Shown here: positions 3,295-47,486 of the stretch, in pieces
Layout: every line of letters begins with the position of its first letter
Numbering within the stretch: position 1 is the first letter of the stretch
DNA from: Amoebophrya sp. A120
Taxonomy: Eukaryota; Protista; Dinoflagellata
Assembly (NCBI GenBank): GCA_905178155.1
Contig: CAJINV010000006.1
Coordinates: 153,965 to 201,450, forward strand
Length of the DNA stretch: 47,486 nucleotides
Reading direction: 5' to 3'
The notes under the pieces: generated by a model
Told to the model about the DNA's origin: nothing
Database searches by the model: none
What the model saw: the letters and a program-made list of their open reading frames with translations, nothing else
Translations under genes and position numbers: made by a program

Positions 3295-3297
3295 GTT

Positions 3298-3335
3298 GTT
3301 CTTTGGTGCCTACAACATACAATTTTACGCGCCGT
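3298..3335. repeat. Junction motif copy 3
   Basis: GTTCTTTGGTGCCTACAACATACAATTTTACGC matches copy 1. Confidence 0.9.
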
Positions 3336-3357: not shown

Positions 3358-3596
3358 ACAACAACAAGGGAGGAGCCCAAATAAGCAGAGCACCACCGTG
3401 ATTCACCTAATTTCCTAAAAGAGATTGCAGATCTGTCAAGTTAACTATAGAGAAAACGGAAGCGCTTCCGAAATGCGAAACGCGAAAAGCGAAAAACCAA
3501 AGGGGGGCAGTAGAGACCTAGGAGAGTAAGAAGAGAGAGACAGCGGAAGCGCCTCCGAAAAGCGAAACGCGAAAAGCGAAAAACCAAAGGGGAGCC
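3358..3596 (+). repeat. Dispersed duplicate of 32518-32756
   Basis: Near-identical ~240 bp including GCGAAACGCGAAAAGCGAAAAACCAAAGGGG units. Confidence 0.9.
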
Positions 3597-25500: not shown

Positions 25501-28500
25501 GGATGAGGAGGGATCCTTTATCAGAGGATGAAATTTGTCTTGCGAACGGTCGTCGTGGTCATCAGCATCTTCACGGGTAAATAAACTTGGCGTCGTCCTC
25601 GTCGTGTCTCTTTGCGCTTCCTCGTCGAAAGTCCGTGTCGCAGATGCCAAATATGCAGTTTTGTTCCTGGAAGCAGGAGCACTGTCTCCTTCTGTGTCTT
25701 CTTCCACCTTCTGCTGCTGCTGATGTGACAGAGAGGAATTATCGGCTCCTTCCCTTTCAGAAGGTTCCTGAGCATTTATCTCATCCATCTCCTCCTCAGA
25801 GGATGACACCAGCTCTGGCTCGTGCTCTTCTGGCGGTTCGTTTCCAGCACAATCTCGGTTAATAATACCGATTTTCATAATTTTCGTTCCTTCGCTAGCC
25901 GACTTCCCGGCGACTTTCTCTTTTTGATCCGCAATGCCGCCGTGATTTTTATCCTGCGCGACGCTGTCCTGTCCTTGTGCCAGTAGCTTCGCTTCGTCAC
26001 CACCGGTTGTAGTGCCGAGAGGAGTCGTCGAGTTGTAGGAGTAGCTCTCTTGTTTCGCCAAAAGCGGTAAAAACGCCGTCTGATCGATGTATTCCTCTTC
26101 GTAAATGTCCGACAGCCGACGGCCCTTCCATTTCGTCGTCTTTCCTTTCATGTCTTCCTCGTTGACCAGGTTTTTCGGTGTTTTCAGCAGCAGCTTCTGA
26201 TTTCTTTTCTTGCCGGTTCCTCCACCTACTTCGCCTGGCTGCAAACTCGCAAAACCATTCTGAAGATTATCTCCCGGCGTCTCCAAATACTTCAGCACCG
26301 TCTGCGCGTCCCACCGCCTTTCCCACCGCCACCGCAGCGTGACCTGCAGCAATGATACCAGATGGCCGAAGAGCGCCGCGTCCTGCTCTTCCCACCTGCG
26401 GGACCTCGAATACAGAATCCGGACCCTGGAGTCCGCCACGGCGAACTGCGCGCGCATCCCGCAGCCCTCTAAATGCTCGTACGGCGCCCGCCCGTATAGC
26501 AACTGGTATAGGATGATCCCCAAGGCCCAAACATCAGCCGCCGGGCGCATCTTCAAACTCGCCGACCCCTCGTCCGGTTGGTAAAATGCCTCCGGCGGCA
26601 TGTACCGCGGCGGGCCGCACTGGCGGTCGCGGGAAACGTGGGTTATACCCTCATCCTTGTTGATCCCCCGCGCGAGGCCGAAGTCAGAGACCTTCACGAT
26701 GTTGTCCACGATGAGGAAATTCGCGGGCTTCAGGTCAAAGTGGATCAAACCGAGACTGTGGATGGCCGCGACGCCAGCGACCATGTCGCGCCAGAGATTG
26801 CGAATATCGTAGATAGAGAAGACTTCGTAGTTTTTCCGAAGAAAGGAGTGCAGATTGGGTATCGGAGGGGAAAGGAGGTGCTTTGGTTGTTGAACCAGTT
26901 CTTCCAATTGAGACAACATTTCGTCGTGCTCATCATGTGGTTGTACATGCAAAAATTATAGCAATGACAAATTACATGCGCTTGCGGCTGGGGCTGCACG
27001 ACTCCTACGAGTCAATAAATCTGCACAAGCTCCTGCTTCTTGCCGCGCGCATCATGCATGCCATCTTCTTAATCGCGGTTTATAGAATCAGAGAAACTAT
27101 CTCTTTCAAACAAACCAACACAACCCTCTCCATCCCATACCACAGTCCGCGAATTCCAGCAAAATGTGGATCACCAAATCTTTTGGAAAAAATTTCGCCT
27201 CGCCGATCATCTTCACTACCCGCAGCTCGTCCGCGTTGTGTTTACCATTCGGGGTAGTTCCGGCATTCGCTGCCCGATTTTTGTCCCGCAAAGCCCGCAG
27301 CCAATTTACCTCCATGGCGAAGGAGCGCATTTGCCTCGCGTCCCGAGCATAAACGACTTTGAGTGCGTAGCGGGTAGCGGGTAACGGACAAGCTTGCTCC
27401 TTGGTTCGACTTGCACTGCTGCTTGTTCCATTGTGCTGTCCACTTCGCGACGCGCCGTCATGGTTGTAGTTATAGGTGCCACGACTTCCCGAGGTCGTAG
27501 TAGTCGATCCTCCATCTACGACACAAGTTCGCAAATCCACGCACTCGAACACCTCCGCCGACCCGCCCTTCCCGATCCGCTTCACAACTTCGAGCAATAA
27601 AGTCGGCTTGTTGAAGTCCACGTGGTGGTTGTCCACCACCTGTTCGCCCATGCAGATGACCATGCCGGGGCCAACGCGGGCGGTGGCGGTCACAGCGATG
27701 TTTTTCCGCTGGATGAACGCAGCCGTGGAGAGTAGCGAGTCGTTTTCCCGGTACGAAGTCCGGCAGTCCTCGTCGTTGAAATACTCCGGTAGGTCGCTCG
27801 GTGAATTGAGAAAAGGGGCGCTGTGGCGCCCGTAGACGGGGATCGTGCTGCAGGCCGCGGAGGTAGAAACTACAGGCTCGGGCGCATGTTCTTGGTTCTG
27901 CGCATTTATGTTGTTCGCAGGACTCGCATCGCCAGGAACTTCAGCATAAGAACGGCGATCGGAAACACCGCGGAGGATGCCATCAGGCGCGAGAGAGGTC
28001 TCGACCTTTTGTTCCGCGCGTCTGGGAGCTATCGGCGCAGAGTCCTCCGGGGCTACTAGTGCGTTGTTGCGGTTGTCGGCCTTGATGTCGTGGCTGTACC
28101 CTCCAGAGCTGGTGGTGTCACGAGGATTTCTGATATGAAAGCCGCGACGTCCATAATTCTCCCCTTCAGCTACAGGCTGAGCCTCTTCTTGATTCTGGGG
28201 AAGCACTGACTCCACATTTCGCTGTAGCTCGTTCTTACCGTTTGATACGCCAAGCACAGTCACCTTTGGCAAATCCGCCTGGTAGACGAAGTCTTGCAGT
28301 CCTTGAGGCTGCTGGTCGTTCTGGCCAGCATTTTGGTGTCGCTCCTGCGGTGCGGCGGGCTGTGTGTCACCGTTTTCGCAGTCGGCATTGCTTTCGAAAC
28401 TGGTTTCTCTGTTTTCCAGCCGCCCCGTGGCTGTGCGGGAGTTCTTGTGCTTGTTGTCGCGATAGGCATCAGTGAGGCCCGCATGGTCTTCAACATCATG

Positions 28501-29247: not shown

Positions 29248-30633
29248 AGGGTCCAGGTTGCGCCACAGTCAGAAGGAAGAGTCACTGGCTGTTAGGTAAA
29301 AAGAAAGGGGTGTTGCGCCGTTGGTCGATGTCGATGTTCTGCCGTTAGTTATTATACAACTTTTACTCGTCGAAAGAAATACTCACAAACCCTTTTCGGG
29401 GCGGCGGATGAGATACTACAACTGCATGCGCAAAAATCCGATCCTCGTGAAGAGGACTGCTCGTCCCGAATGCGTCTTTCAGCCTGTTCTCGCGCCCTTC
29501 GGATCTTCTCCACCCGCGACTACGAGATTGTAAAAACGCCGTCAGATGAGCAACAGGCTTGTGCTGCGCGCGGGTTTGGTGTTGGCCTCTTCTCGAATTG
29601 AAGGTAGATACAACTGCTCCATGCGTGCTGTCTTTGTTTTGGTTCAATTGTACAAATATTAAACTTCTTTCTAAAGATGAAAAGTCGACGCAGAATTATA
29701 GAATATCTTTGAAATTCCGTGCTGAAACTGAAACCGGTGGGGTGAATGCTGAGTGTCTTACAAAATTTTTTCTGCTCGTCCGGCGTCTACTTTTATCATA
29801 TCAGGAAAAATGAAACGGTGGAGAGTGAAAGCGGTTCATTTTTTCTAGATTCTCATCCACCCGTGTATCCATAAAACAATGTTGAGTGACTACAAAAGAG
29901 CTTCCAAGTCGTGCTACTCATTATACAGTAAAGTCCAGAAACGTTGCCGGCTGTCAAAGGCAGTCATCTCATGGAGGAATTAAATCTAGGGCTATGTCTA
30001 CGTACTGAAACAATGGTCGCCAATTATATACCGCAACCACAACGAACTGCCCGTGCCTGAAGCGATGTTGAAATAAAACGATTCTTTTATCAAAACGCAG
30101 AGAGTGGTGCTGAGACGATGCCACGACGACGAGAGGCGATCCGACAAAACGACTACATACGATATAGCTTTTTCATGAAGCGATTCTAATTGCATTTCGT
30201 GAAAAGAAGCAGATGATTTTCACAGGCAAGATCAGGAGTCTGGGCGATGATAAGGAAAAAAGGGCTTTCAATTTTGACTTTTATGAATTAGTGTTCATCT
30301 TGAGAGCTTCGCATTAGTCCCATTTCTGCATGCCAAGGTGTGTAATTTCAATGACGTCATAAACTGCGAGCCGGTGGTGCACTATGTTGGAAATGGATCA
30401 CCAGACTCACTGACATTGACCTTGACGTAGTTGATCTCATCGCAATTAAACGCTATCGGAGCAGGTAGTATTTTGAGAATAAGTAGGACTGTGCAGGAGC
30501 ACATAATCATGTCCATCTTCCTCCTGCATACTTGTTGGAAATGGATTACGGTGATGAACTATGTTGGAAATGGATTGTATATGCGTATTGTATTCTTATT
30601 TTTTCAGTTTTTGTAGATTAGTCGTAGTCCTGC

Positions 30634-31340
30634 CATGAGGCAAATGCCCAACAACTGCGGAGGGGTAGCGGAGGGTGTAAACGGCACATGCAGAATCGCA
30701 GTTCCGTCCGGGTAACAGAAGTTCAATAATAAATGCCATCTGTTTTCAAAAAGTATGCACTTTACAATTTTCATACTATCCGCAGCTAATTCTGGGTGTA
30801 ATCGACTGCAACTTGCCCTCCGCCACCCCTCCGCTAGGCGAGTGTCAAGAGGTGATACCATGCTGAAAAGCTTTCTATTCGTTTTTACTGTTGTTTTCCG
30901 CTTTTTTTGTCGGTATTGCAAGTTTTCAAAATTCAGCATGCTGTGAGGAACATGCCCAGCAACTGCGGAGGGGTAGCGGAGGGTGTAAACTGCACATGCA
31001 GAATCGCAGCGCCGTCGGGGTTACAGAAGTTGAATAATAAATGCCATCTGTTGTCAAAAAGTAAGCACTTTACACTTTTCATACTATCCGCAGCTAATTC
31101 TGGATCTAATCGACTGCAACTTGCCCTCCGCCACCCCTCCGCTAGGCGAGTGTCAAGAGGTGATGCCATGCTGAAAAGCTTTTTATTCGTTTTTACTTTT
31201 GTTTTTCGCCTTTTTTGCCGGTTTTGCAAGTTTTCAAAATTCAGCATGCTATGAGGAACATGTCCAGCAACTGCAAAGGGGTAGCGGAGGGTGCAGAAGG
31301 CACATGCAGAATCGCAGTGCCATCCTGGTAGCAGAAGTTT
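30634..31340. repeat. Tandem repeat, 308-bp period, ~2.3 copies
   Basis: AACTGC(GG/AA)AGGGGTAGCGGAGGG at 30653, 30961 and 31269. Confidence 0.92.
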
Positions 31341-31844: not shown

Positions 31845-32561
31845 ATGGCAAACACGGGCGCGAAGGTCGAGCTCGTGCCGATCCACAAGAAGGCCGAGTG
31901 GGAGCCTTTTGAGTGGCGTCTCCGGAGCAACATCATCAATGTTGTCAAGGTCCCCGCCCAATGGGCTGCCTTCATGGCAGACGACAACTTGGTGGATTTT
32001 CAGCCCGCTTTGACCGCCCGCCAACGAGCCAGTTGGGACAATTTGGAGTCCGCCTTTACCGCCGCCATCCAGGGTGATGCGCTTCTCTTGGTCCAGGGTG
32101 CCCAGCGAACTGGTGTTCTGCAAGTTTTCCGCTTTTTGAAGCGTCAGTGGGGCCAGGAGAACAACCAGATCGACCAAGCTGCTATGTTCGCGAAGTTCAC
32201 CACGGAAAAATTTACTTTGGGCGGCAAGGACACCCCGGACTTCACGTTGTGGATTTGGGACAAGTACAGTTTGGCTTTGAAAATTCCCAACTACATCCCG
32301 GTCGGTGCCCAGCTGGAACACCACATGCGCCACATCTTGCGACACCTTTTGGACCCGGACTGCATGGGCAAGATCATGTCCGAACTGCGTGCCACCCCGG
32401 ACGCCCAGCTGCACTGGGAGAATGTCGGAATTCCCCGCGTTTTGGACTTTATCTCCTCCGGACAAGCATCCCAAGAGAAGGAGTTCCAGGCCCGTGTCAA
32501 CATGGCCTTGGGGAACAACAACAACAAGGGAGGAGGCCAAATAAGCAGAGCACCACCGTGA
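31845..32561 (+). pseudogene. Ty1/Copia gag-like ORF, truncated before the zinc knuckle and pol
   Basis: Pattern W.P.EWRL...AIQGDALLLV...VFRFLKRQWG resembles Copia gag; ends abruptly at NNNNKGG where the repeat element starts. Confidence 0.6.
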
Positions 32562-32579
32562 TTCACCTAATTTCCTAAA

Positions 32580-33502
32580 AGAGATTGCAGATCTGTCAAG
32601 CTAACTATAGAGAAAGCGGAAGCGCTTCCGAAATGCGAAACGCGAAAAGCGAAAAACCAAAGGGGGGCAGTAGAGATCTAGGAGAGTAAGAAGAGAGAGA
32701 CAGCGGAAGCGCCTCCGAAAAGCGAAACGCGAAAAGCGAAAAACCAAAGGGGAGCCGTGGGCAATTTATTAATAGAGTAGGAAGAGAGAGGGCGGAAGCG
32801 CCTCCGAAATGCGAAACGCGAAAAGCCAAAGGGGGGCCGTGGCTACTACTCAGTAGGGTAGGAAGAGAGACAGCGGAGGCGCCTCCGAAATGCGAAGCAC
32901 GAAAAACAACGAAGCGACCGGGGTGGGCTCCCTGATAATGAGCAGAGTAAGAAGAGAGAAAGCAACAGCGCCTCCGAAATGCGAAACGCGAAAAGCGGCG
33001 AGGACAGAAGGCAGGCCCTTCGCCTCTTACTAAGTAGAGACAGTGGCGACGCTCGGCTCCGCCTCCGGCGTTGTCTCTCCTTCCCTTCCGCACTAGCGAC
33101 ATCCGCGGCCCCCACGCTTAATATCCTGCGGGGCTAGTTATAGTTTGTATGCGCATGGGGACGCGTCCAGTTCTAGGAGGAGGGGACCCGGAGGGGTTCG
33201 CTGGCTCTTGGTCTTGGCATTGTCGCTAGGGACGCGGCTCGCCCGTGCGCTCAAGCACAACAGATCGACACAGACCACCGCCCCGCCCGTCTGCCTTTGT
33301 TTTGGCCGGGCGAGAGGCCGGGGCGGGGAGCGCGCGGAAAGCGAAGGCATGGATCCCAGTCGCAGCGCTTGGCCCATGCCGCGCCAAATGGCGCGGCGGG
33401 CCCTTGGTCGGTCGCACCAGCCGCAGCCTATTGCGGGGCCGGCACCCTGTTGTGCAGGCCCGAAACGAAAACGCTGGGCATTCGCGTGCGGGCGCTTCTG
33501 TT

Positions 33503-33540
<38 letters not shown>

Positions 33541-35210
33541 GCGAGATGAATATCGCGAGAAACTTCCCGGCGGGCGCACCAATGTAGCAGAGCGCAGCGA
33601 TAGGCGCCCCTGAGGGCCGCCGGCGCCAAGCCTCCACCGTGTTCGAGGCGCGGGCGGCAGCACAAAGCTGCGAGGGTTTCGCGAGGACGGAGACCAGGGC
33701 CATGGCAACAAATTCCACCCAAAAGCGCCGGCGAAGTAAATCAGGCTGGCAGCTCGCTCGTGGCTCGAGAATGAAAGCGCGCGCACTTTGCCCCACCAAT
33801 GGAAGCAAATGCAAAGAAATCCACGCGATTCATTGCGCGCAGAAAATTAATGGCGGGGAGGAGTCGACCCTGTTCACCACAGCAAGCCCAACCATCCAAA
33901 AGCGCAGGCGGATTATTGATGAGAAACCCCTCTTGTGGTTCGAAGAAAAAAGCGCAGGCCTCTCATCGGTAGAAGCTAGCACGCGACGCAAACCCCTGAG
34001 CGCCATCGTGCTCGAAAGCGATGGCGTTGCAAAGTGCCTGCCCATGGCAACAAGCCTAGCCCTTCTCGCAGCGAGAACCCGCCCGCGGAGCAAAATGCGG
34101 CGCCTGAAAGCGCTCGCGGTCGCGCCGGCGGTCCACACTGGCCAGCCTGGGTTTGCCGCGTGGGGCTTGCTGCCATCCAGCCGCCGATCTGCCCCGGCCG
34201 GATGCGGGGCTCCCGCCCCACATTGGCGCGCGGCGCCACCCTGGGGAAATGCGCTGCATCGCCCCCCCCCGCCCCAGACCCCCCGTATGCGCGCGTGTTT
34301 GTAGTGCGCGCGGCATGTTTGTAGTGCGCGCGCCCTTTCGGTGTATCCTGTCGAAGATCGCGCCGGCCCGGCGCTTGTTAGTTCGTTGTTAGCTTGCGTT
34401 ATGTTGCTCGACTGGCTCTGTTGATAACGGCGCAGCCCCTTGCGGGCGGGGGCCGCGTCAATCTGTTGCGGGCGCACGGGCGGGCAACATCCCTCGCGAC
34501 AATATTTAGACCGAGCAAGCAAAAACGCCCCCGGGGCCCGGGCCTCCACGAACTGGGCGCCTCCCCTTTCGCTTTCCTTTGCAAACTAACTGCGCAACGT
34601 ATGAGGTGCGGAGCTTCGCCAAGATCGCTCGCGTCGGTCGCTATTGAAAAAAAACGCGCGGGGCTGTGTGCATACCATTCAAAACAAGGGGGGGGCTCGT
34701 TGTAATGAAAAAAAAAGCGGAACAAAGCCAAGCGGTTGGGCTCGCTTTTCGCGTTTCGAATTTCGGGGGCGGCTTTCGCTTCTCTCTATCTCTTCGCTCT
34801 GCTAATTATTTCCCCGGTCGCTTTCTTCGCTTTTCGCGCTTCGCTTTTCGTGGGTCGCTTCCGCTTTTTCTCTGCTTACTATATTCATTGTCTTGGGGCT
34901 CTTTTCTTTTTCGTTTTTCGTGTTTCGCATTTCGGGAGCCGCCTCCCCCTTCTCTTTGCTTACTATGTTGATTATTTTAGGAATAGGCTATGTATTTTTT
35001 TCGCTTTTCGTGTTTCGCAATTCAAGCAAGGAGGCCAGCTAGTACCTGCACACTTTACACAACACACACACACACACCAAAATTAATTAGCGGGGAGATA
35101 ATTAGCACACACATACACACACACACACACGACCGGGGAAATAATTAGCGGAGGAGATAGAAAGAACCGAAAGCCGCCCCCGAAATGCGAAACGCGAAAA
35201 ACGAGCGCTG
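32580..35210. mobile_element. Putative non-autonomous foldback-like element with arrays of CCGAAATGCGAAACGCGAAAA motifs
   Basis: About 5 direct motif copies at 32620-33000, reverse-complement copies at 34740-35020, another direct copy at ~35175-35205; GC-rich core with no recognisable CDS; exact ends and TSD not found. Confidence 0.5.
33508..33539. repeat. (GT)16 microsatellite
   Basis: Direct inspection. Confidence 0.95.
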
Positions 35211-36383
35211 CTATTTTTCCGCTCTCCATAAATGCTCGGGACTCTCCCACCAATAAAATTCTGACCAGCTTTCGCTATTCTACTTTTCACCCATCTCTCG
35301 CTGTAGCAAGTTTAGACCGAATTATTTTCCCTCGCGGTAGATTCATTGTACTAGCGACTCCAAGAACAACATTGATTGCTGCAAAGCTAGAAACTTCCCT
35401 GATAGTCCTCTGGAAAATAATTGGCACATAAGCAACAAAAGAAGCAAAACTACACAGCTCTGGACTTTTCATCGGCCCACCTTCAGCGCAGGTGTTTACC
35501 CAGAGAAAACAAAGCCCACACAGTCACGAACACGTTTGCAGGCAATTCAGCTCGCCGTCCGTGAGGACGGCCGACAAGGCCGTGGAACACAAATTGTCGT
35601 GGCGTAATTTCTGTTTTCCTTTCAACACTTCGATGTTGAGGACGAAATGATAGAAGTTTATTCATCCATCGCAGCAAGGGGAATTATTCGGTAACACAGC
35701 AGGAAGCATCATCACCGAAAGAGATGAGCGAATGTTATAGTATATCTCGCATCATAATAGCGCACCACTCTGTAATAGGTGGATATTTCAATTTCATCCA
35801 TATCCAAGTGAGTAATGAAAGACCAGTAAGTATCTAGTTCCTGACTACACCACTTCAGCTCACCGCCGCTTTTTTCTGCCGTTTCGTCCCCTGATTCGCT
35901 GCCTTCTTGTTTTTATCCACTGCAAAAGTATCGTACTCGTAGTAATTGCATTTATGCATCACAAATCTAGTAATCAAGGGAAATCCGCATTACAAATTAC
36001 ATTTGTATTGCTGAGCCAATTTGTATTTGTAATGCACTTTATACTAGTACGATAGGATACTTTTGCACAGCATAGTTTTCCCTTTTTCCCGCCCCGACGT
36101 TACTCACGTCTTCTGCAGCGTATCCTGAGTAAAAGCGTCCCCATATTACCAGAGTCAAGATGGAAAATCTGCTAGACAGATCAGCCAACTCTGGTTGTTT
36201 CGCATGACAAGTTTGTCCTGGTAGTGTAATCCTGTTTGGCTACTTTAGCAGCATCACAGATCTAGAATATCATGCTATTTCTAGCATCACAAATCCCTCC
36301 AAAACACGACTAGAAAAAGCTCCTCATGTGGCTTCGCATGAGGCACTTTTTTGGCATGCAGATTTGCATGACAACTCTGGGGC

Positions 36384-36849
36384 TGTACGAAAGTACTACT
36401 TGGACACGGACCGAACTAACGCACACGAAAATAAACTTGTATAACCAAAACAATGCATGAACGAGTTGTAGAACATCGATGGGCATAGGGGTGCAAAATA
36501 AAATGGTTGTAGATTCAGATTGTATGTTCTCCTTAGCAACTTCCGCGTATTCTCTGTAGGAATTTGCTCAACCTTGAGCCAAAATGGCTACGTTGAAAAG
36601 GTTCCTTCATGCAATACAAACTTCAACAACCTCAAATCTGTCATGCTGTTTTGACATTCGGCACGGAACTGCCGTATCGTAGTTCTCATGCGACTTGTAG
36701 ATCATGCGCATTACAGATTTGCATCAATTTGACGAGTGGGCTGGTCTTTGAACGTCAGTGCATTTTAGGAACCTAGTGTAAAAGCTTAGCGGAGAACGAG
36801 TTCATTTGTGGTCTTAGTTCGATCTGATTCCGAAGTCCTTATGCATACA
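36384..36849 (-). repeat. 3' LTR
   Basis: Direct repeat of 47021-47486 with 4 substitutions counted by eye. Confidence 0.96.
36573..36594 (-). other. DinoSL motif in 3' LTR
   Basis: AACGTAGCCATTTTGGCTCAAG: 21/22 match to DinoSL, followed by GT. Confidence 0.88.
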
Positions 36850-36858: not shown

Positions 36859-38337
36859 TCGCGACGATGTAATGCTGTTAGCCATCGGAACGACTAATCT
36901 TGAGGTCATCAGATTGAACCACAAACGAACGAAATATAGAAAAATATGGTAAGGATATCCGTGTCCATGTCCCACGCCCCTAGGCACGCCGATGCGGTTT
37001 CCATCTCGTCCGATCGGTGTGGCTACGACAGCGACGCGGAGGTTGGAAAACCTTAAGCAACGTGATGAAGTTAGAAATAAAATCATACAGGTAAAGGAAT
37101 GTAATTATCCACGTGGTTAAACTTGTTCTGGTGCCATGACATGCAATTTATGCATGACAAAAAGCACAAAATACCAGTAAACTGTCCTCTTTTTCCTTCG
37201 TACGGAAATGGAACCGAAGAGCAACTTCTGGTGTGGTGATGACCAAACTCCAGCTTGTCGCACGTTCGAAGATACCGCATCCAAAACGTAGCGCAACCGT
37301 AAGCCCAGAGCTTGCCATCCATCGACAAGTAAAAAAAATATAGTGAATTTGAAAAAATGCATGACAAACTTGTGTTTGCGATTTAAGTAAATAAAAGCGA
37401 CTTCGTTGCAAATTCCTGGAGCAGTTTGCGAAACAACACGGAAATTTATCCCGTCCCTGTCTCCTCTCCTGTGGTGTCTTGCAACTTAGTCCATACGAAG
37501 TCTGAAGAAAGGAAATCTAATTTCTTTGTATTGTTATCTCCCCCATGCCAGTGCGTTTTCTGCCTTTGAGATACTAGAAAGCTTTTCATACGTCTCGCCT
37601 TGTCCCCCTCTGTATCTGGAGAAAGACGTCAATTTCTGTACCTCAAACAACATAAAAATCAAGAAAGTTCGTTAATTCAACCTTTCCGCCTTGTCCGCCT
37701 GTAAAACCGTCGAAGTTTTTCAAAAGATGTCGTGAAAGAGAAACAAAGTCAATTCCTAGCGCGGACCGTTTACGCCTAGAATCCATCGATTCTGTTCTGC
37801 AAAGTTGTGTGAAAAGGTGGAAAAACAAGAGAAAAACAACAAAAACTACCATGATCGTGAAGAGAGATCAACAGTTTTGAGGTGTAAACTGGAAGATGCG
37901 GCGCGTGGTAAAATATGAAAGAAGGTGCCGCAGACCAATTTGTGATGCTAAAATGGCTACGGAAATAAAGTAGAAGCGCGTCGACTTACATCATCGCGAT
38001 CGTCGCACACCGTCCTAAGTGCAACAGCACAAAGGAAAGCAAGAAACAAAAAAAAACGCACAGTTGTAATTTTTGAGTTTAATCCGCTGTTGTCGTCAAC
38101 ATCATGTCACGAAGAGCTTCGTGACGTGCTTCTGACGACATTGGCGGGCGAACAAGCAAAAAAATAATACTTCTGGGGGTAAGAGATAGGCTTTAGGTGC
38201 TATTTGAGATGTTTTGATACTAATTAATCGGCCGTCTGTCATGCAGAGAAGTGAACTTTTGATGTATTTGACCCGAAAGTCTTTGCATATGGAGTAAAAC
38301 AGCATGACAGACCAGCTTTTAGACATGAAGTAGCTTA

Positions 38338-41300
38338 CTATCCTAAATTTTCTTTCAAGCCCGCCTCAAACAAATTCTTTCTTTCCACGACTACCGTCGG
38401 AACGACCTGTGCACGCGTTCCACTGAATAAAATGTCAATCATTCTACTGACCCGCGAAACGTTGAAGAGGGGAACTTGGTTCACGCAGCGGCTGAAATGG
38501 TCCGCGAAAACATTGAATTTGCCCGCAACGTGCACCAAGGTGATACAGTGCAAATCCTTCTTCACCTTCAAACACCACCTGTGCAGCCGTCCCATCGAGG
38601 TTTGCGCGATCCGGTCCATGTGGTCACTCAAATTCACGTGGTCCGTGAAGACCACCATCGGCAACCCCTTGAAGTGTTTGTAGACCTCGGATAAAAATTT
38701 GAAAAGCACAAACGCCTCCCGGCTTTGGGTCTCCCATCGGCGCTGGGTGTTGTCAAAGACGAAGTTTTTGCTATAAAAAATTCTCAAGCGGCAGCCGATA
38801 GCCTCCGAAAATGTTCCGACAATCGCCGCCCCGTACTCACTTGCATCCAACCAGAAACAGATCGGATTGTCGGCGGAGATCGCTTCATAGTTGATGTTTT
38901 CGATGTACACCTCGGCCGCGATCAAATTTTGCAAATCCTTGACCGCCTGCTGTGCTTGGGGATCCGTTAGAAAAGGCTTGAAAATTGCTCCTTTTTTCAA
39001 GTACTTCCGGAAGTGGTGGTAGTGTTTTCCAAACGTGGGGAGCCACTCCCTCAAAAACCCAAGCATGTGGGCAAAAGTCACCAACTCCGACCGCGTGTTG
39101 ATTTCCTTTTGCGCAATTTGTGCTGCTCGATCCGGGTGAATACGCTTTCCACGCCTCGACCAGAGGTGCCCGAGGTACTGCCCCTCCCGTCGTAATCCGC
39201 TGCTTTTCCGTAGTGAAAACCGAAACCCGCTGTGGATGTTTGCAAGAAAATTTCTGCGCAGCCTGTCCTCGATCTGGGAGCACTGTTTGTTGTCTTTGTC
39301 CTGTGAAGCTGAAATAAAACCGGCGTCATGCATGCAGGGGTCTTTTGCATCTTCTTCTGCTTTTGCATCTGCATCGAAAAGCGCCCCAGATCGAGAAGTG
39401 CCAGAAGTAACCCCTTCAACCGTGTGGGACGGTAGGTGCTCCGCTCTTTGCCTCGCCCGCTCCAGTTTCGCCTTGTTTCTTGCAGACACTGCTTGGACGC
39501 GTTTGCGCCTGTGGATACCCGGCGGGCGGATGCCCGGCAACTTCTTCTTTTGCTTGTCGTCCTGCACTTGTTCCTGCTCCTGCGGCGCCTGGTTCTCGTC
39601 TTCCCCTTGCTGAACGTCCGTTTCTTCTTTTTCTACCGCGTCATCATTTTTCACCGCCTGTTCCTGTTGTTCCTCCGCTGCTGCGGAGACCGAAGAATCT
39701 GCAACCTGCGCTGCGGGCGGTGCAGTTTCAACTTCCTGGGCGTTGTCAACCACTACCCCGCCGGATTCTTGTTCATTTTCCAGCCCAAAGAACTCAAGAT
39801 CTTTGTCCAGCAGATCCTGTTCTTGCTGGTTCTGGAAGTCCGGGTTGGTGTTGAAAACGGGGTGGTAGCGGGTGGGAGGAGTGGCCCAGCCTTTGTCCTT
39901 GACTAGCCACTCACCTGTAAACATATCCAGGGCGGTGACCTCGATGAACTCCTTTTTTTCAATATCATAGAAGAAACGATGAGCGGGAACGATCTGGCCT
40001 GCAATCCCGGTTGCAACAAGGCGGTCGCCATGGATGTCTTTCTTTTTTCCGTCCGGTCCTTGAACGATGTAGCCCGTCGCCCCAAGATGCGAAACCACTG
40101 TGAACGCGGCCTCACTGTTCCGCCCTGTAAGCTTCTTTTTGCTTTTCTTTTCCCCGGGGTCAGTGATAAAAACACGGGAACCGATCGGAAACTTGTCCAA
40201 CTTCGCGCCACTGCGTCGTAGGGTTTGCCTTTTTGCGGTTTCCGAGGATTCCAATCTTGAATCCAAAGTCAGTAGCGCGCCGTCGCGTAGGACTTGAAGC
40301 TGCTTTTCCACAACTTCATTTGGCGACGCTTCAACAAGTTCCTTCTGACTCAACAGAGTCAGCGCCAGGGGCATCTTGGGCTTGAAGTGGTTCCTTTTCT
40401 CGAACGGGCTGACATATCCGAGGCATTTCAGGGGGGTAATTCGGGCGATGAACTGCAGCTGCGGGGCCAAAGTTGACCACTTGCTTTTCAAACTCGGGTC
40501 TTTCATCACCATAGCAATGAGGCTGTCGATCATCGGCTTGTTGGGGGACTCGACGGCGGTGTTAGTTTTCGGTCTGTACGCTTTGCTTTCCCTCTGCGGA
40601 ATGTCCAGCAACCCCATCAACTCCGATAGTTCTCCCTCCGAAAATGCTCCGTCCGAGCGGAGGACTTCGGTGTTGTAGCTGGTGTCCGGAAAAACGATGG
40701 AATTCAGGTGGTGCGCCACCTCCCGTAGTCCCGTGCTCTTGCAGGGGATCAACCACATCCAGCGCGACACCATGCAAACCACCGAAAGCAAGTAGCAGTA
40801 TCCAAACTCATCTTCTGCCAGCGGCCCGATGTGGTCCAAAATCAAGGCGACAAACAAACCAGAATAAACTTCCGGGCCGTCGAAGAACGGGTAAAGGTTT
40901 CCCCGCCCCCGAATACACTTGCAGGTGAGGCATTTTCGCACGAGGTCCAAAACGTTCTTTCGGATTCCGGGCCAGGTGATCATCAAAACGCCGTCGATAA
41001 TCCGGAACGTTGCTTCGCCGTTGACATGTGCAAACTGTCCAAGCACCATCCACACGACCGCCGTCCGCCAGTCCATAGTGTATTCTTCCACGAAGGCAAA
41101 GTTCTTGACAATCGTGCCGCCCGCGGGGATAGCAAGTTTACCTTTGTCGAACAAAAATCCGCCCCGGAGCTTCATACTGATAGCCCGAGACTCTACGACC
41201 CGCGCCTCCTTCGTGCCGAGTTGCCCCACAACGTCCATTCCTTCTAAAAACCTCACTACTGGTCCGTAGTGCTTGTCCGCTCGGGTTGCTGCGATAAACT

Positions 41301-44300
41301 CGGCACTGGAAACTCCCAGCATCGGAATAAACGCGCCGTAGACGTCGTCTTGTTCTTCCGTTGGTTGTGTCTTGAAAAATTTTACAACTTTTGTTGGCCG
41401 ATTGGACACAAGCAACGAGTCGCCCACCTCCTGCAGCTGTGAAGCGAAGATCTTTTTGTAACCTTTTCCGACCCTGGAGCTGCTGCTTCCGGCTTGGTTC
41501 CGACGCACGAAACGGACATCGACCTCGTCAAACTTAACTTGAACCTTTGCCGCAGAATCGTACACCTGCACCTGGTCGACCGGAAGCATGTCCGGCCAAA
41601 TCTGTTCGCAGGTCTGGGTGATGGTTTCCTTGCTGGAATCGTCCTGGAGGTCGGAAATAGCATCTACAGCTTCTTCTGACACTGGAAGCCAGTCTCCCGC
41701 GCTGTAGTCTGCATTCCCGCACAAAATGTCCTCTACTAGCTGCGCCGGGTCCTTTGGTCCTTCTGGGTCCAGTATCTTCTTTCCGTGCCCCCGACACGTG
41801 TAGCGACGGGTCACCGCTTCCCCGTGCCGCATAGTCGTAATTTGTTCACAGTTGTCACAAACTTCGGCCGGGTCGTTGGCGAAGAAGTGGGTCCCGGGAA
41901 CAATCCCAAAAACTGCGGTCTTGCGGATGGAGAAGTTTTTGTCTGGCACTCGGCAGAGGTAGAACCGGTGGGAGTCCGGATCCCCATGGAAAAATCCCTC
42001 GTGATCGTCCGGAACGGAAGGTGGTAGAACAGGAGCATCGGCCCGGTTTCCCATTGTTCCGAAAAAATTTTTCGTAAAGAACGCCCAAGCCGCACGGAAC
42101 GCCTCCTCCCTTGTCTTGTAGCAACGCGGAGAAACCCGGAAAAGCTTCGTTTTGTCCCGGGGCTTCTTTTCCTTCGCGGTTGTGTTTCGAAGGTAGACGA
42201 CCCAGATTTTTCCTGCCGAAGAATCACACCAATAGATTCTTTCCGGCCTCCAGTTGTCTTCCTCCTCGCCCGGCGCCAGAATTTCATCGGCCTGAACTGC
42301 AGCCCCAGCTGCTATCTCCCCTGCGTCCTGGATCTCCTCCAACAACGCCTCTTGTTGCTGAGGGTCAGCCTGTTCTACCGGATCTTTCGCCTTTTTTTTT
42401 TTTTCCTTCTTGGCTTCGCGAACGAAAGGTCTGCCGATTCTGCGAACTGCAAGCTGTAGCGCTTGGGGACTGGCCGTGGAAGAGGAATTTGCGTGGCTGT
42501 CGTCAGAATCTGACCCAGATTCCGACCCGCTTGTATCCGTTTCGAACTCTTCGTCTTCCGTGCCCGCTGGTGGCTGTGTGGTTTTGACCTTCACGACCTC
42601 AAACCCGCCCAAGTTGCACTTGGAATTTTCTCCCGCGACCTGTGCGCGGCTCTCCTGTTCTTCGTCCGAGTAACCATCGCCCCCGCACGCAACATCATCG
42701 AGGTAGACCGCGTTGAATTCTTTGCCGTCTCGATCCTTCAGCGCGCCGTAGGTTTTGGAGGTGACGGTCTGGAAACAGGCTGGAGCAGGTTTGGGTCCGA
42801 GCGTAAGGACGGTCGGTTTCAACAGTCCGCGATGGGTCGACATCGAAAGCAGCCTGCTAGTGGACTCCGAGAGCCGAAGCTCGTTGTACCCAATTTCCAA
42901 GTCCTCAAAATCGTAGTAGTCCTTCAGCTCCATGAGCTGCCAAACCTCCTGGGGGTTCAACGGTTTCGCGCCGAAATTCTCGAAGATGTCATTGAGTTCG
43001 ACGTAGTCATTGAGAATTCTTCCTTCGTGTCTGTTGCCGGATCGCGATCCGACAAACACTGGCGAAGCCGCAGGCGGTGTCGCATCCCCGGCACTGTCCA
43101 CCCAGCGCGCCGTCTTCTGGAAAACCATTTTGTCGTAGTGGAAGTCGGCCTGCAGCTTTGCATATTCCCCGACCGGGTACGGCGGGATAATGCGCAGCCG
43201 ATTCTCACAACCCGGGATGACGAACATTTGTGCAAAATAGCCCTTGACAAACGGCGCCCGGTTTCCTTCTACGAAGTACGCGGCCGCCAGCTGCTGAACC
43301 AGTTTCAAATAACCCTCCCGCAACCGTGGCGGGGCCTCGCACAATTTCGCCAAGTGGTTCACCACTGTGGTCTGGTGCTCTTTTCCTAATGGGTTAATAG
43401 GAATTTCTGCCATGTACTTTGCCCGGAGCTTGTTCAGGTAGTCCTTCAGCTCGCTCACCGAAATCTGTGTATTTTTTCCAATCGGTTGGACCTTCGGCAG
43501 CTGCGGGTTAATTCGCGTCGGGGAATCGTCAGCGAAGGTTACTTTCTTTTCCTTCTTCCGTAGTGGTGGTTCTTTCGGCTTCAAATCTCCTGGCCAAACC
43601 GGAACAGGGTCCGAGCCTACTGCGGTAGCGACAACTGGGATGGGCGCAAATTTCTTATTTTTGTCCCCCTGCGTCCGCAGCACTGTCAGCTTGGCGAACG
43701 GGAGGTCTTCAAGTTCTAAAACTTCTTCCGAATTGTTCAGAACATGCACCGCGGCCTTGTTGGCGTTTTCCGTAACAACAGGAGGAAAAGCTCCGCCCTT
43801 TTCCGCCAGTTCGTCCGACGGCTGCAACAGAAATTTCGCCCCTGCCCCGAAGTCAACTCCAGCCGGAACGCTAGCGCGGTCAATGTTCACGATCATCGAC
43901 CCAAACGGCGGAAGCGTAAGTTCAAAAGCGTCAACCCCGACGACAGGCGTCAACTTTGCTACCCGCTTCAGCGCCACCGGTGTGGACGCTTTTCCCCGTG
44001 GCACTCGGATGACCTTCTTCGAACCGCCGGGGGGCTTGACCTCGATAAAGTCCTTGTTGATGACCCCGAGGGCCTCAAGGTCTTGTTCCGACAGCATCAA
44101 CTGGTCCTCCGCTCCACCAACTGCGAACCGGACCCAGGAGTTGTAGGCTTTTGTCGTTTCCTTGTACTCCTCCGGCTGCTCAAGAAAACCCAGACGCAAG
44201 TAGCAATACTGCTTGACCCCGAACTCCGTACCACAGGCCGAGATTGCTTTTTCTTCCGCGACCAGGTCCTTGCGTTTTCGGAAACAGGTTTCGGGCAGGT

Positions 44301-46047
44301 CCAAAGCCTCCAGCGCCTCGTAGGTTTTTTCGCCCATCAAAGATACAAACTCGTCACCCGTATCTGCGAGAGCCCAAAACGTAATTGGTTTCTCGTTTTT
44401 GCTGGCGCCGTAAACAACCGTCTTCATGTAGTAGCCGGTCGGGTCTTTGTTGGGGTTGATAAAAGCCGAAGCGGAAGGGGAGGACACCTTGACAGCATTT
44501 AGGCGACGAATCGAACCGGTGCGAGGAGTCGTGGACGGAGAACCAACTTCGTTTTCATCTTCTTCTTCCTCGAAATCGTCCTCCTCTTCTTCGTCCTCCT
44601 CGGTTTTCGTCGTTGCTGAACGAACCATCTTTGCCTTCCCGCCTTTCTTTCCTTTGCCTTTTTGCTTCTTGAACTGCGAATACGGGAGGTAGTCGCACTG
44701 CTGTCCTTCGCGCAAATCTCCCTCCTGGAAGTCCGTCGGGCACTGCTTCGCATACTTTGGGTCGGTGGGCTTGCGATGTTTTCCTTTGCACGTGCTGCAG
44801 TAGACGCCGTTCTTGGTCAGCGCGACCATGTTCTCCTGCATGTGCTTCGCAAATTTCCGATGCGCCTCACGGTCGTGGTTCACTCCACCGCACTTGTCGT
44901 GGTCGGTAACGTCCGGGCCCTCGATCGGCGTGCCGCCACCAGCTGCAGCTCGCTGCGACTTGTCCTCCAGCGTTTCTTTGGTGGTGACGTTGTTCACGGT
45001 CCTGGCGGGTGGGGTGGTTTTCTTTTGTTCTGTGTCGGCCTTCTTCTGTCTCCGGTGGCGCTCGCACTCGTCTGTTGCGATGTCCTCCAGTTCGACCAGA
45101 ACCTTTCGTGGACTTTGGTCGGACAAAGAAATTTTGTGGGTGCGGAAGTAACTGTCGATGTCCTTCGCCACCCAGTCCGGGAGGCCCTTGTTGTATTTCA
45201 ACTCCGCGAGGAAGTCCCGCCGGTCCTGCGAGCCCTCCACCTCGTCCTCCAGTTCCCAGGTCGTATTTGCAATTTTCTCACGCTCTGCTTGCCAGGAGGC
45301 GAACGCAGACTCAACGGCCGCCGTGAACGCCCGCAAACTGCGAGCGAGGTCCCCGCCCTTCATCTCGAACTTGATCGCGTCCAGTTTTTGCTTTGCAATG
45401 TCCACCGAAACCAAAACGCTGAAGCCGTAGTGTCGGGACAGGATGTTCTTGAAGTCATCCAGCGCCGCGGCGTACATCTCTTTGTCGAGTTCTTCGAGCG
45501 AGTACCGGGATAACTGCATTTCCAGGGCTGCAAAAACGTTTCTTGCCGTTTCGTCTTTGCACTTCTGTTTGCTGGTTGCCGTCTGCAAGTCCGACCAGGC
45601 GACTGCGGGCTTGGAATATTTGGAACGCCAGGTTTGGAGATCCGTGAGGGTTTGCTTCCGGTCCTCCGCCGTATCCGATCGGAAGGTTGGAAGCGTGATA
45701 GCACTTTTTGCATAATTATCGCCGCCCCCTTCTGCGCCTCGGCGTAGCTGCTGAAACAGGAAATCCCGCAAGTCCCGCTCCATATCTTCCCCGGCGGCCC
45801 CTTCACGCGGCCGCGGTCCGCTTGCAGTGTACCGAACAGAACCCGCGGCAAGCGTAATATCAAAATCTGCCCGCTTCGCCCCGGGGAAGACTTTGCGCAA
45901 GATGTCCAAGACCTTGCGACGCGCTAAAACCTTCTCCACCTCGGTCATCTTTTTCAAATCTTTCTTACGGTCCACCACAACGACCTCACAGGCACCCCTT
46001 TCGACCTTGAGCCTTTCCAACGTTCCGACGCCTTGCAGTTTCTCCAT
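38338..46047 (-). CDS. pol: Gag-Pol polyprotein: gag C-part / Cys-His knuckle - protease - dUTPase-like - RT(N) - AP2-like - integrase - RT(C) - RNase H
   Basis: CSTCKGKH..C; ALADTG (44356-44364); SPVFV, RILNDYVELN, LTLGPKPAPACFQ, YLDD (42694-42705); integrase H..WP..CLTC, LDHIGP, RSDG, AVE (40549-41030); YLGH (~39170); LDAS, REA, TDH, ADHFSR (38490-38850). Confidence 0.93.
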   Translation of the reverse strand: MEKLQGVGTLERLKVERGACEVVVVDRKKDLKKMTEVEKVLARRKVLDILRKVFPGAKRADFDITLAAGSVRYTASGPRPREGAAGEDMERDLRDFLFQQLRRGAEGGGDNYAKSAITLPTFRSDTAEDRKQTLTDLQTWRSKYSKPAVAWSDLQTATSKQKCKDETARNVFAALEMQLSRYSLEELDKEMYAAALDDFKNILSRHYGFSVLVSVDIAKQKLDAIKFEMKGGDLARSLRAFTAAVESAFASWQAEREKIANTTWELEDEVEGSQDRRDFLAELKYNKGLPDWVAKDIDSYFRTHKISLSDQSPRKVLVELEDIATDECERHRRQKKADTEQKKTTPPARTVNNVTTKETLEDKSQRAAAGGGTPIEGPDVTDHDKCGGVNHDREAHRKFAKHMQENMVALTKNGVYCSTCKGKHRKPTDPKYAKQCPTDFQEGDLREGQQCDYLPYSQFKKQKGKGKKGGKAKMVRSATTKTEEDEEEEDDFEEEEDENEVGSPSTTPRTGSIRRLNAVKVSSPSASAFINPNKDPTGYYMKTVVYGASKNEKPITFWALADTGDEFVSLMGEKTYEALEALDLPETCFRKRKDLVAEEKAISACGTEFGVKQYCYLRLGFLEQPEEYKETTKAYNSWVRFAVGGAEDQLMLSEQDLEALGVINKDFIEVKPPGGSKKVIRVPRGKASTPVALKRVAKLTPVVGVDAFELTLPPFGSMIVNIDRASVPAGVDFGAGAKFLLQPSDELAEKGGAFPPVVTENANKAAVHVLNNSEEVLELEDLPFAKLTVLRTQGDKNKKFAPIPVVATAVGSDPVPVWPGDLKPKEPPLRKKEKKVTFADDSPTRINPQLPKVQPIGKNTQISVSELKDYLNKLRAKYMAEIPINPLGKEHQTTVVNHLAKLCEAPPRLREGYLKLVQQLAAAYFVEGNRAPFVKGYFAQMFVIPGCENRLRIIPPYPVGEYAKLQADFHYDKMVFQKTARWVDSAGDATPPAASPVFVGSRSGNRHEGRILNDYVELNDIFENFGAKPLNPQEVWQLMELKDYYDFEDLEIGYNELRLSESTSRLLSMSTHRGLLKPTVLTLGPKPAPACFQTVTSKTYGALKDRDGKEFNAVYLDDVACGGDGYSDEEQESRAQVAGENSKCNLGGFEVVKVKTTQPPAGTEDEEFETDTSGSESGSDSDDSHANSSSTASPQALQLAVRRIGRPFVREAKKEKKKKAKDPVEQADPQQQEALLEEIQDAGEIAAGAAVQADEILAPGEEEDNWRPERIYWCDSSAGKIWVVYLRNTTAKEKKPRDKTKLFRVSPRCYKTREEAFRAAWAFFTKNFFGTMGNRADAPVLPPSVPDDHEGFFHGDPDSHRFYLCRVPDKNFSIRKTAVFGIVPGTHFFANDPAEVCDNCEQITTMRHGEAVTRRYTCRGHGKKILDPEGPKDPAQLVEDILCGNADYSAGDWLPVSEEAVDAISDLQDDSSKETITQTCEQIWPDMLPVDQVQVYDSAAKVQVKFDEVDVRFVRRNQAGSSSSRVGKGYKKIFASQLQEVGDSLLVSNRPTKVVKFFKTQPTEEQDDVYGAFIPMLGVSSAEFIAATRADKHYGPVVRFLEGMDVVGQLGTKEARVVESRAISMKLRGGFLFDKGKLAIPAGGTIVKNFAFVEEYTMDWRTAVVWMVLGQFAHVNGEATFRIIDGVLMITWPGIRKNVLDLVRKCLTCKCIRGRGNLYPFFDGPEVYSGLFVALILDHIGPLAEDEFGYCYLLSVVCMVSRWMWLIPCKSTGLREVAHHLNSIVFPDTSYNTEVLRSDGAFSEGELSELMGLLDIPQRESKAYRPKTNTAVESPNKPMIDSLIAMVMKDPSLKSKWSTLAPQLQFIARITPLKCLGYVSPFEKRNHFKPKMPLALTLLSQKELVEASPNEVVEKQLQVLRDGALLTLDSRLESSETAKRQTLRRSGAKLDKFPIGSRVFITDPGEKKSKKKLTGRNSEAAFTVVSHLGATGYIVQGPDGKKKDIHGDRLVATGIAGQIVPAHRFFYDIEKKEFIEVTALDMFTGEWLVKDKGWATPPTRYHPVFNTNPDFQNQQEQDLLDKDLEFFGLENEQESGGVVVDNAQEVETAPPAAQVADSSVSAAAEEQQEQAVKNDDAVEKEETDVQQGEDENQAPQEQEQVQDDKQKKKLPGIRPPGIHRRKRVQAVSARNKAKLERARQRAEHLPSHTVEGVTSGTSRSGALFDADAKAEEDAKDPCMHDAGFISASQDKDNKQCSQIEDRLRRNFLANIHSGFRFSLRKSSGLRREGQYLGHLWSRRGKRIHPDRAAQIAQKEINTRSELVTFAHMLGFLREWLPTFGKHYHHFRKYLKKGAIFKPFLTDPQAQQAVKDLQNLIAAEVYIENINYEAISADNPICFWLDASEYGAAIVGTFSEAIGCRLRIFYSKNFVFDNTQRRWETQSREAFVLFKFLSEVYKHFKGLPMVVFTDHVNLSDHMDRIAQTSMGRLHRWCLKVKKDLHCITLVHVAGKFNVFADHFSRCVNQVPLFNVSRVSRMIDILFSGTRAQVVPTVVVERKNLFEAGLKENLG

Positions 46048-46170
46048 CAGCTCCTCGTATTTTTCGAGGTCCGGGTCCGGCTGGAGGAAATCCTGCTCAC
46101 TATTTTCGTCTTGTTGGGAAGTATCTCTTCGTTGTCGGGTTGCGGCCTGTCTACTTGTAGTGTGAACTTG

Positions 46171-46935
46171 TTAATGGCGGGCGGGTGGGGGGTTCAAAAA
46201 CTGGGCTGTCGGCCGCGAAGGCTGTCCCATCGTCGCTGGTGCTGGGCCGCTGCTGCTTAGCTGCGAAAGCAGGACACTACCGCGCTCCGGTGCGTAGCGG
46301 TTGTTTGCTGAATTCTGTGGGACATTGTCAGCGCGGAATGAAAATTGCGACTGCTCCTGCGTCGGGTGTGGCGGAAAGTTTGGTTGTCCTTGCTGCATCG
46401 CAGCGCCGGCTGCGGTCGTTCCAAAAATCCCTTGCGCCGCCCCGTTTTGTTGTTGTTGTGCGCGCTGGAGGAGCGGCCCGAGATGTGTGACAAGGTCCTG
46501 CATGTTCAGGGTAACTTGTTGCCCGTGGATTACTGCGCGCCCCGGCTCCACGTGAACTCCTTGCTGTGCAGGTATTTGCTGCTGCGGTACAGGATGCTGG
46601 TAGGGAGCTTGTCCCGGAAAGGCCCCACTACTGCTCGATGCAGCAGCTCCTTGCGTGCCGCTTCGTCCCAATAGCCCGCGCCCGCTTGTTCCTCCGTGCT
46701 GCTGCTCAAGCGGGTCATTTGTAAAGCTGTTCTGCGACATGTGAACGCTTTGGTTGCTGCTCGGGCTTGGATTAGCGCCACCCGCGCCCTGGTACCGGTA
46801 AGGCTGGAACTGCTGGTCTTGTTCCCACTGTTGCTGCTGTCGGTACTGGGCCTGGTTCTGGTGCACCCGGTCCCAATTGTATCGCCGTCCGCTCATGTTG
46901 AAAATGGGTTTTTTCTTACTTGTATTTGTGTGCAT
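46171..46935 (-). CDS. gag: Gln/Gly-rich ORF1 (gag N-terminus), in frame with gag-pol across one TAA
   Basis: Starts 70 nt after the PBS; conserved in the sister copy at 1018. Confidence 0.8.
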   Translation of the reverse strand: MHTNTSKKKPIFNMSGRRYNWDRVHQNQAQYRQQQQWEQDQQFQPYRYQGAGGANPSPSSNQSVHMSQNSFTNDPLEQQHGGTSGRGLLGRSGTQGAAASSSSGAFPGQAPYQHPVPQQQIPAQQGVHVEPGRAVIHGQQVTLNMQDLVTHLGPLLQRAQQQQNGAAQGIFGTTAAGAAMQQGQPNFPPHPTQEQSQFSFRADNVPQNSANNRYAPERGSVLLSQLSSSGPAPATMGQPSRPTAQFLNPPPARH

Positions 46936-47004
46936 TATTCAATCGTGAAAGGGGTAAAAGTTTTGTAGTACGTAAATGTTAAAAGTTTGGTCCTATGGCT
47001 AGGT

Positions 47005-47018
47005 CCGGCGATGCACCA
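47005..47018 (-). promoter_or_regulatory. Primer binding site, probably tRNA-Gly
   Basis: TGGTGCATCGCCGG, 2 nt after the 5' LTR; 1 nt shorter than the sister PBS at 933. Confidence 0.72.
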
Positions 47019-47020
47019 GT

Positions 47021-47486
47021 TGTACGAAAGTACTACTTGGACACGGACCGAACTAACGCACACGAAAATAAACTTGTATAACCAAAACAATGCATGAACG
47101 AGTTGTAGAACATCGATGGGCATAGGGGTGCAAAATAAAATGGTTGTAGATTCAGATTGTATGTTCTCCTTAGCAACTTCCGCGTATTCTCTGTAGGAAT
47201 TTGCTCAACCTTGAGCCAAAATGGCTACGTTGAAAAGGTTCCTTCATGCAATACAAACTTCAACAACCTCAAATCTGTCATGCTGTTTTGACATTCGGCA
47301 CGGAGCTGCCGTATCGTAGTTCTCATGCGACTTGTAGATCATGCGCATTACAGATTTGCATCAATTTGAAGAGTGTGCTGGTCTTTGAACGTCAGGGCAT
47401 TTTAGGAACCTAGTGTAAAAGCTTAGCGGAGAACGAGTTCATTTGTGGTCTTAGTTCGATCTGATTCCGAAGTCCTTATGCATACA
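47021..47486 (-). repeat. 5' LTR
   Basis: TG...CA termini, direct repeat of 36384-36849, followed by the PBS. Confidence 0.96.
47210..47231 (-). other. DinoSL motif in 5' LTR
   Basis: AACGTAGCCATTTTGGCTCAAG|GT, 21/22 match to DinoSL. Confidence 0.88.

Follow-up and report, generated by a model that had tools for sequence, protein, structure and literature searches.

The window, i.e., the whole 47,486-nt stretch of DNA analyzed here, contains an LTR retrotransposon whose LTRs each carry a sense-strand copy of the 22-nt spliced leader of dinoflagellates (DinoSL), as does the LTR of a truncated sister element. We consider it probable (roughly 60%) that this copy came from reverse-transcribed, trans-spliced element RNA and that it still works both as an acceptor of trans-splicing and in providing the sequence match that the first strand transfer requires. 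Dinoflagellate mRNAs gain their 22-nt leader by trans-splicing, and LTR strand transfer needs matching RNA ends. How an LTR element could replicate in a host that replaces the 5′ ends of its mRNAs is therefore a puzzle, which a leader copy within the LTR would solve. The parts of this mechanism that are seen directly are the motif, its place, its strand, the T-run with its AG, and one assembled tandem between U3 and U5.

A search for the 22-nt DinoSL pattern with up to 3 mismatches on both strands of the window returned exactly 3 matches (Table 1); dinucleotide shuffles of the window gave a mean of 0.00 matches, and 0 of 100 reached 3. The copies are in register in all three LTRs, with the 22-nt frame running from LTR position 256 and leader bases 3 to 22 at positions 258 to 277 of 466, and they lie on the same strand as gag-pol and the primer-binding site (PBS). 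The 20 contiguous identical bases correspond to leader positions 3 to 22, while position 2 is an A, not a C. In the sister LTR, one additional T-to-C change falls within the T-run of the leader, with TTTG retained. Four T residues (five in the sister LTR) stand just upstream of the copy, and GT follows directly behind it in 3 of 3 LTRs. The pattern search thus bears out the sequence-only reading, which had described a DinoSL in the middle of all three LTRs on the sense strand, preceded by a T-run and followed by GT, with 20 contiguous identical nucleotides in the full-length element and one extra mismatch in the sister. Its comparison with SL RNA genes held in part: the T-run and the GT are there, but the bases behind the leader copy are GTT instead of GTA, and the next 60 nt are unlike those of L238, an SL-RNA-gene-like locus with an altered second leader base, an intron starting with GTA, and a T-tract. 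GTA is what stands behind the leader in the SL RNA primers for core dinoflagellates and Perkinsus given in the consulted part of PMC3101222.

Judged from its sequence, the element appears to be a young Ty3/gypsy-type LTR retrotransposon. It shares with Ty3/gypsy elements direct TG...CA LTRs, a tRNA-type PBS behind the 5′ LTR, a short purine tract before the 3′ LTR, and, by sequence matches, a reverse transcriptase (RT), an RNase H, and a DDE integrase of gypsy/retrovirus type. The ends of the 3′ LTR were confirmed by contig branch points in run X2. The sister LTR differs from the LTR of the full-length element at 47 of 469 aligned columns. The tRNA matching the PBS may be tRNA-Gly; ARAGORN found 0 tRNAs over the window. 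Self-priming of the Tf1 type was rejected, as the PBS complement matches the LTR over no more than 6 nt. Within ORF2, the RT_RNaseH domain matched at 1.6e-7, the integrase resembles those of foamy viruses and Ty3, and the RT matches are weak and fall in two separate places. The two closest relatives of ORF2 among 1.84 billion representatives are the proteins P0002 and P0003, and the proteins closest to it carry RVT_1, RT_RNaseH, and Integrase_H2C2. The TAA at 46171-46173 (minus strand) separates ORF1 from ORF2 in the same frame and is followed by CAA; in P0002, a single open frame crosses the region matching this junction. The stop may be read through or may be a mutation of this copy. A near-identical element occurs on a 7035-nt contig of run X1, with 36 differences. 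Of 40 differences to X1 (a subset of 108 that is biased to one base), 33 are in ORF2, 12 of them synonymous, 21 not, and none creating a stop, a pattern too weak to show purifying selection.

Table 1. Positions of the element, its LTRs, its coding regions, and the leader copies in the window
Feature	Positions	Strand	Remarks
5′ LTR	47021-47486	-	466 nt, TG...CA; the window edge is the first base of the LTR
3′ LTR	36384-36849	-	466 nt; 4 differences from 5′ LTR (99.1% identical); short purine run ahead
Sister-subfamily LTR	464-930	+	~90% identical; followed by PBS and start of ORF1; broken off at ~1678
DinoSL copy, 5′ LTR	47210-47231	-	1 mismatch; leader bases 3-22 exact; internal AG after T-run, putative trans-splice acceptor
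DinoSL copy, 3′ LTR	36573-36594	-	1 mismatch; putative landing site of minus-strand transfer
DinoSL copy, sister LTR	720-741	+	2 mismatches
Relict part of leader (bases 8-22)	47210-47224	-	15 nt; twice in tandem in X1 LTR contig, once in window and in main X2 LTR contig
Primer-binding site	47002-47018	-	2 nt behind LTR; begins with complement of tRNA CCA end
ORF1	46171-46938	-	255 aa between stops; rich in glutamine; matches no Pfam family; one TAA at its end
ORF2 (P0001)	38338-46170	-	2610 aa; gag-like part, protease, first half of RT, block with integrase, second half of RT, RNase H
RT first half, through YLDD	42664-43077	-	ORF2 aa 1032-1169
Integrase-containing block	39865-42246	-	ORF2 aa 1309-2102; C-terminal in closest relatives P0002 and P0003
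RT second half and RNase H	38488-39267	-	ORF2 aa 2302-2561
Internal partial leader (bases 1-14)	37950-37963	-	Lies behind pol; exact over 13 nt; a 69-aa ORF follows after 98 nt

A likely footprint of trans-splicing came from run X1. Contig 8 of this run (540 nt, over 46962-47486) contains 15 extra letters behind 47209 that equal leader bases 8 to 22, at a depth of 149 of 192 at that place, and the order on the element strand is U3, leader, relict, U5. This one X1 contig has the leader with a relict that is cut behind base 7; the window and the main X2 contig do not. According to the available portions of PMC12014239 and PMC3229502, a leader-relict tandem arises when a leader encoded in DNA is transcribed, undergoes a second trans-splicing at the AG behind base 7, and is reverse-transcribed. 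As a random duplication, the X1 tandem would be one among 335 possible products of 15 nt from this LTR, one among the 26 of these with at least 2 nt of microhomology, and one among 827 products of 5 to 40 nt with at least 2 nt of microhomology. It was assembled in one contig of one run, from a sample that is possibly the window's own. In run X2, from the same sample, the main LTR contig has a single leader and extra contigs overlap the leader (depth 142 versus 92), which we read as both forms, single and tandem, being present; the tandem is not listed for X2 or for X3, a further run of that sample.

Since trans-splicing at the internal AG needs RNA upstream of it, the X1 tandem implies that transcription starts further upstream. 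Moreover, because the tandem lies behind U3, the cDNA of the spliced 5′ end must have joined the 3′ LTR, most simply through pairing with the leader copy. The RNA of the element is likely to be trans-spliced at the motif, and the tandem would then preserve, within an LTR, the sequence trace of trans-splicing and of reverse transcription. The sequence-only reading had placed the leader at the start of R and proposed that SL addition regenerates the same 5′ end. The core of this idea, that element RNA meets the host trans-splicing machinery at the motif, gained support from the X1 footprint. Exact regeneration did not, as the recorded event used the internal AG and lengthened the 5′ end; use of the terminal AG is possible and compatible with the data, though the tandem points to the internal one. 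In all, the LTR has four sites that combine a pyrimidine tract with an AG, the internal AG among them.

In the mechanism that we propose, transcription would start within the LTR, upstream of the leader copy, and the host spliceosome would add the capped leader at an AG of the copy, which in the recorded case would be the internal one. Reverse transcription from the tRNA primer would then copy the leader up to about base 3, and the cDNA end would pair with the leader copy in the 3′ LTR of the transcript and extend into U3, yielding the tandem form. Alternatively, a transfer further downstream in R would restore the single form, so that finding a single leader in the main X2 LTR contig is expected when transfer can take either route. 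The loss of base 2 of the leader is in keeping with a reverse transcriptase halting short of the cap. With no leader copy in its LTR, a trans-spliced genome would give a cDNA ending in about 20 bases that find no pairing partner, and the copy is thus predicted to be kept by selection once acquired. In a bolder version, which we put forward only tentatively, the trans-spliced leader would be the working R of the element, with the spliceosome making the 5′ end and the 3′ LTR copy acting as the cDNA landing site. Co-packaged host mRNAs, which share the leader, could then jump onto the U3 of the element at this place. If true, leader-bearing LTR elements would be the long-sought machine of dinoflagellate mRNA recycling, here with an integrase nested in the reverse transcriptase.

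Exchange with host messages may also have left traces. Behind pol, the element carries an internal partial leader (Table 1) whose 13-nt exact run was reached by 2 of 1000 Markov resamples. The DNA at 37714-37845, behind this internal leader, is common to other loci and to RNA-like contigs of higher depth. The internal leader and the DNA behind it are likely a captured piece of host mRNA, and a captured piece inside the element would fit template switching between the element and leader-capped messages. The 69-aa ORF behind the internal leader has a hydrophobic start. In addition, an X2 contig departs from the LTR at 36572, one base behind the leader, into at least 255 unrelated letters that are absent from the window; it is a candidate for a U3-leader-host chimera, or else a plain host relict.

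On the RNA side, raw runs X4, X5, and X6, in which the presence of the organism is uncertain, gave 0, 1, and 2 reads on 11.6 kb, none of them on an LTR. Record 18 of X8, a contig guessed to be RNA but possibly DNA (depth ~3; one sample), starts 6 nt before the 3′ end of the leader, and the accessible text of PMC12014239 gives this truncation as the dominant one in assemblies. Record 16 of X7, of the sister type and with the same guess of RNA or possibly DNA (depth ~3), ends 11 to 14 nt before the leader. Two of the four ends of guessed-RNA contigs thus fall within ~40 nt, for which P is about 0.04 with an interval chosen post hoc, and this was not counted as evidence.

The conservation of the leader copy bears on whether it is still in use. 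Between the full-length element and the sister subfamily, the leader 22-mer has one difference, and 224 of 445 LTR windows of the same size also have one or none; in this comparison of two subfamilies, the leader copy shows no excess of conservation over the remaining LTR. This is what would be seen if one ancestral trans-spliced RNA had been copied once into an LTR and then passively inherited, with the tandem being a product of slippage or assembly. The change in the T-run of the sister leader agrees with such a neutral fossil, as does the abundance of relict leaders in dinoflagellate DNA, which is indicated by the consulted sections of PMC5585692 and by our metagenome scan. The tandem is known from one contig, and the leader hairpin together with a 2-nt microhomology could favor a slippage duplication at this very spot. 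Nonetheless, the duplication has exactly the published relict boundaries, which only 1 in 26 to 1 in 827 of the alternative products would have, and the copy is still identical at 20 of 20 bases though the subfamilies differ by 10%. We therefore regard passive inheritance as rather unlikely. The upstream start that the tandem implies weighs against a leader encoded in cis, in which transcription starting at or just behind the copy mimics a finished host message without splicing, or in which a TTT(T/G) box acts as a core promoter. Putative giant-virus contigs, which keep the first two leader bases in 127 of 138 distinct contexts, make a cis-encoded leader conceivable, and the TTT(T/G) of the leader was proposed as a retrogene promoter in the part of PMC5585692 available, the sister LTR having TTTG. 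Unlike the viral copies, however, the LTR copy is without leader base 2, and the first ORF begins ~270 nt behind the motif. On balance, a cis-encoded leader or promoter seems distinctly improbable.

It is also conceivable that an SL RNA gene was captured by the LTR, with short LTR transcripts donating their leader to other RNAs. The GT behind all three copies, hairpins predicted in and behind the leader, and a T-rich tract ~70 nt downstream would suit such a gene, and Amoebophrya SL RNA introns are reported as variable in the portion of PMC3101222 consulted. Against it stand the GTT and the altered leader base 2. The 60 nt behind the leader resembled L238, which stood in for the host's own gene in this comparison, no better than shuffles did (251 of 500 as good). 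Folding was likewise no better than in shuffles (z of 0.61 and 0.88) and lacked the two-stem-loop form, no Rfam family matched at its gathering score, and the sister LTR alters the T-run that forms the exon Sm site. A captured SL RNA gene is thus very unlikely. The sequence-only reading had further suggested that the motif provides a ready-made leader or lets LTR transcripts act as SL donors; both options are disfavored.

The preferred reading, a copy acquired from trans-spliced RNA and still working in splicing and strand transfer, has partial parallels in known systems. DinoSL trans-splicing and a single SL gene are reported for two Amoebophrya-like syndinian genomes in the accessible part of PMC7789003. 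The tandem resembles the DinoSL-DinoRL retrogene tandems of the Slamovits and Keeling model, as described in the consulted passages of PMC12014239, PMC3229502, and PMC5585692: in both, a leader copy in DNA is reused as an acceptor at the internal AG, giving a leader plus a 15-nt relict. As in DinoSL/DinoRL retroposition, a sense-strand genomic leader copy stands upstream of a coding region. Whereas the copy of a retrogene heads a one-off gene copy, that of the element is present in both LTRs, between U3 and U5, and would be recopied in each cycle. Cer1 of Caenorhabditis elegans is also a gypsy element in a trans-splicing host (SL1), with RNA carrying a trans-splice acceptor. In contrast, the 8-kb genomic RNA of Cer1 reportedly escapes trans-splicing, and the part of PMC3315495 from which these statements are taken mentions no SL copy in the LTR. 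With the genomic RNA of Cer1 avoiding trans-splicing, an element need not adapt through a leader copy, a point against the preferred reading; no account of SL-like LTRs in Cer elements of nematodes turned up in the literature searched. A dinoRNAV with a 5′ DinoSL, for which mimicry was proposed (Levin et al. 2017, as cited in the available text of PMC10235124), is similarly a parasite RNA starting with the host leader, but, being an RNA virus, it has neither LTRs nor strand transfer. The consulted sections of PMC5585692 and PMC6050394 state that it is not known which retroelement gave rise to the retrogenes so common in dinoflagellates, and that LTR elements have no direct evidence in their favor. 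The present element makes that source testable by way of U3-leader-host mRNA chimeras. A literature search of titles and abstract openings, with most subscription journals outside its range, gave no paper describing LTRs with a spliced leader in them or an RT in which an integrase is nested.

Surveys for relatives and for other leader-bearing DNA gave the following picture. No LTR-bearing distant relatives were found in viral or metagenome contigs; at the protein level, RT-C/RH gave no homologs at near lengths and RT-N gave two distant proteins. A metagenome scan for leaders covered 31 of 64 parts and yielded 119 loci, most of them on contigs of 1 to 3 kb. In 93 of the 119, the match lay at least 30 nt inside its locus, i.e., a leader joined to unrelated upstream DNA at base 3, a truncation that the search pattern itself imposed. 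None of the 119 loci was matched by tblastn with 153 Pol proteins. Pfam, applied to 90 of the 141 listed ORFs of these loci, found no RT and no integrase; ORFs from the majority of the loci whose leader sits at a contig end, and a good number of second ORFs, were set aside. On contigs this short, these negatives carry little weight. The putative giant-virus contigs, loci L004-L118 (IMG/VR, mostly GVMAG contigs), include many exact DinoSL copies, mostly behind AT-rich DNA and ahead of ORFs, three of them followed by GT, and L004 carries an NCLDV capsid gene. In L068 (5299-5318, minus strand), the leader is at the very 5′ end of a 5.3-kb contig with RdRP_1, like in dinoRNAV; L048 and L050 are of similar size and have long ORFs with no Pfam match.

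The second unusual feature of the element is its Pol. Ty3/gypsy elements normally have the order RT-RH-INT, and in Gmr1 an intact RT comes after INT (PMC8220671, in the part consulted); here INT lies between two RT halves, so that ORF2 follows neither PR-RT-RH-INT nor the PR-INT-RT-RH of Gmr1. From YLDD to the next RT motif, ORF2 has 1164 aa, compared to 87 and 34 aa in P0002 and P0003. Among 152 related proteins, 52 had all three parts, 51 of which were in standard order, 1 integrase-first, and 0 nested. By a cruder count, the integrase stood ahead of RT-C/RNase H in 5 of 128 proteins, i.e., three Gmr1-like ones with an intact RT and two without a detectable RT core. The X1 contig crosses both junctions of the integrase block gap-free, and the nested order is thus not peculiar to the assembly of the window. 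A search for a canonical intron that would remove the block found no strong donor in any of the 306 in-frame GT/GC-AG pairs. A PDB search with RT-N alone gave 0 matches, and the single-sequence fold of RT-C/RH was poor (pLDDT 38). As far as its sequence tells, the element presumably works like, and descends from, a gypsy element with a rearranged Pol, and the nested integrase appears to be a separate, unusual polyprotein layout.

The remainder of the window holds further repeats and one host-like gene. The truncated sister element is bracketed by a 42-nt repeat (423-464 and 1679-1720), which occurs again at 3294-3335, beside a separate integrase (rve) fragment at 2839-3309; the region of the sister element and the rve fragment consists of nested, broken elements. 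Repeats of 81 to 89 nt with a shared core (3358-3596, 32518-33000, and 34740-35206) form direct arrays as well as 56-nt inverted arms 355 nt apart, and this family is possibly a small transposon or an introner-like element. At 30631-31339 lies a 308-nt tandem repeat of ~2.3 copies that are 85 to 92% alike, and the 3′ flank of the element (35900-36383) is a very high-copy repeat matched by thousands of X1 contigs. Finally, the host gene of known domain content that lies nearest to the element is a 1148-aa open frame at 23512-26955 (minus strand), which begins within an MPS1/TTK-like protein kinase domain, at its second part. It suggests an Amoebophrya-like syndinian as the host, with Amoebophrya A25 as its best match (E value of 7e-55, 53% over the kinase part) and A120 in third place.
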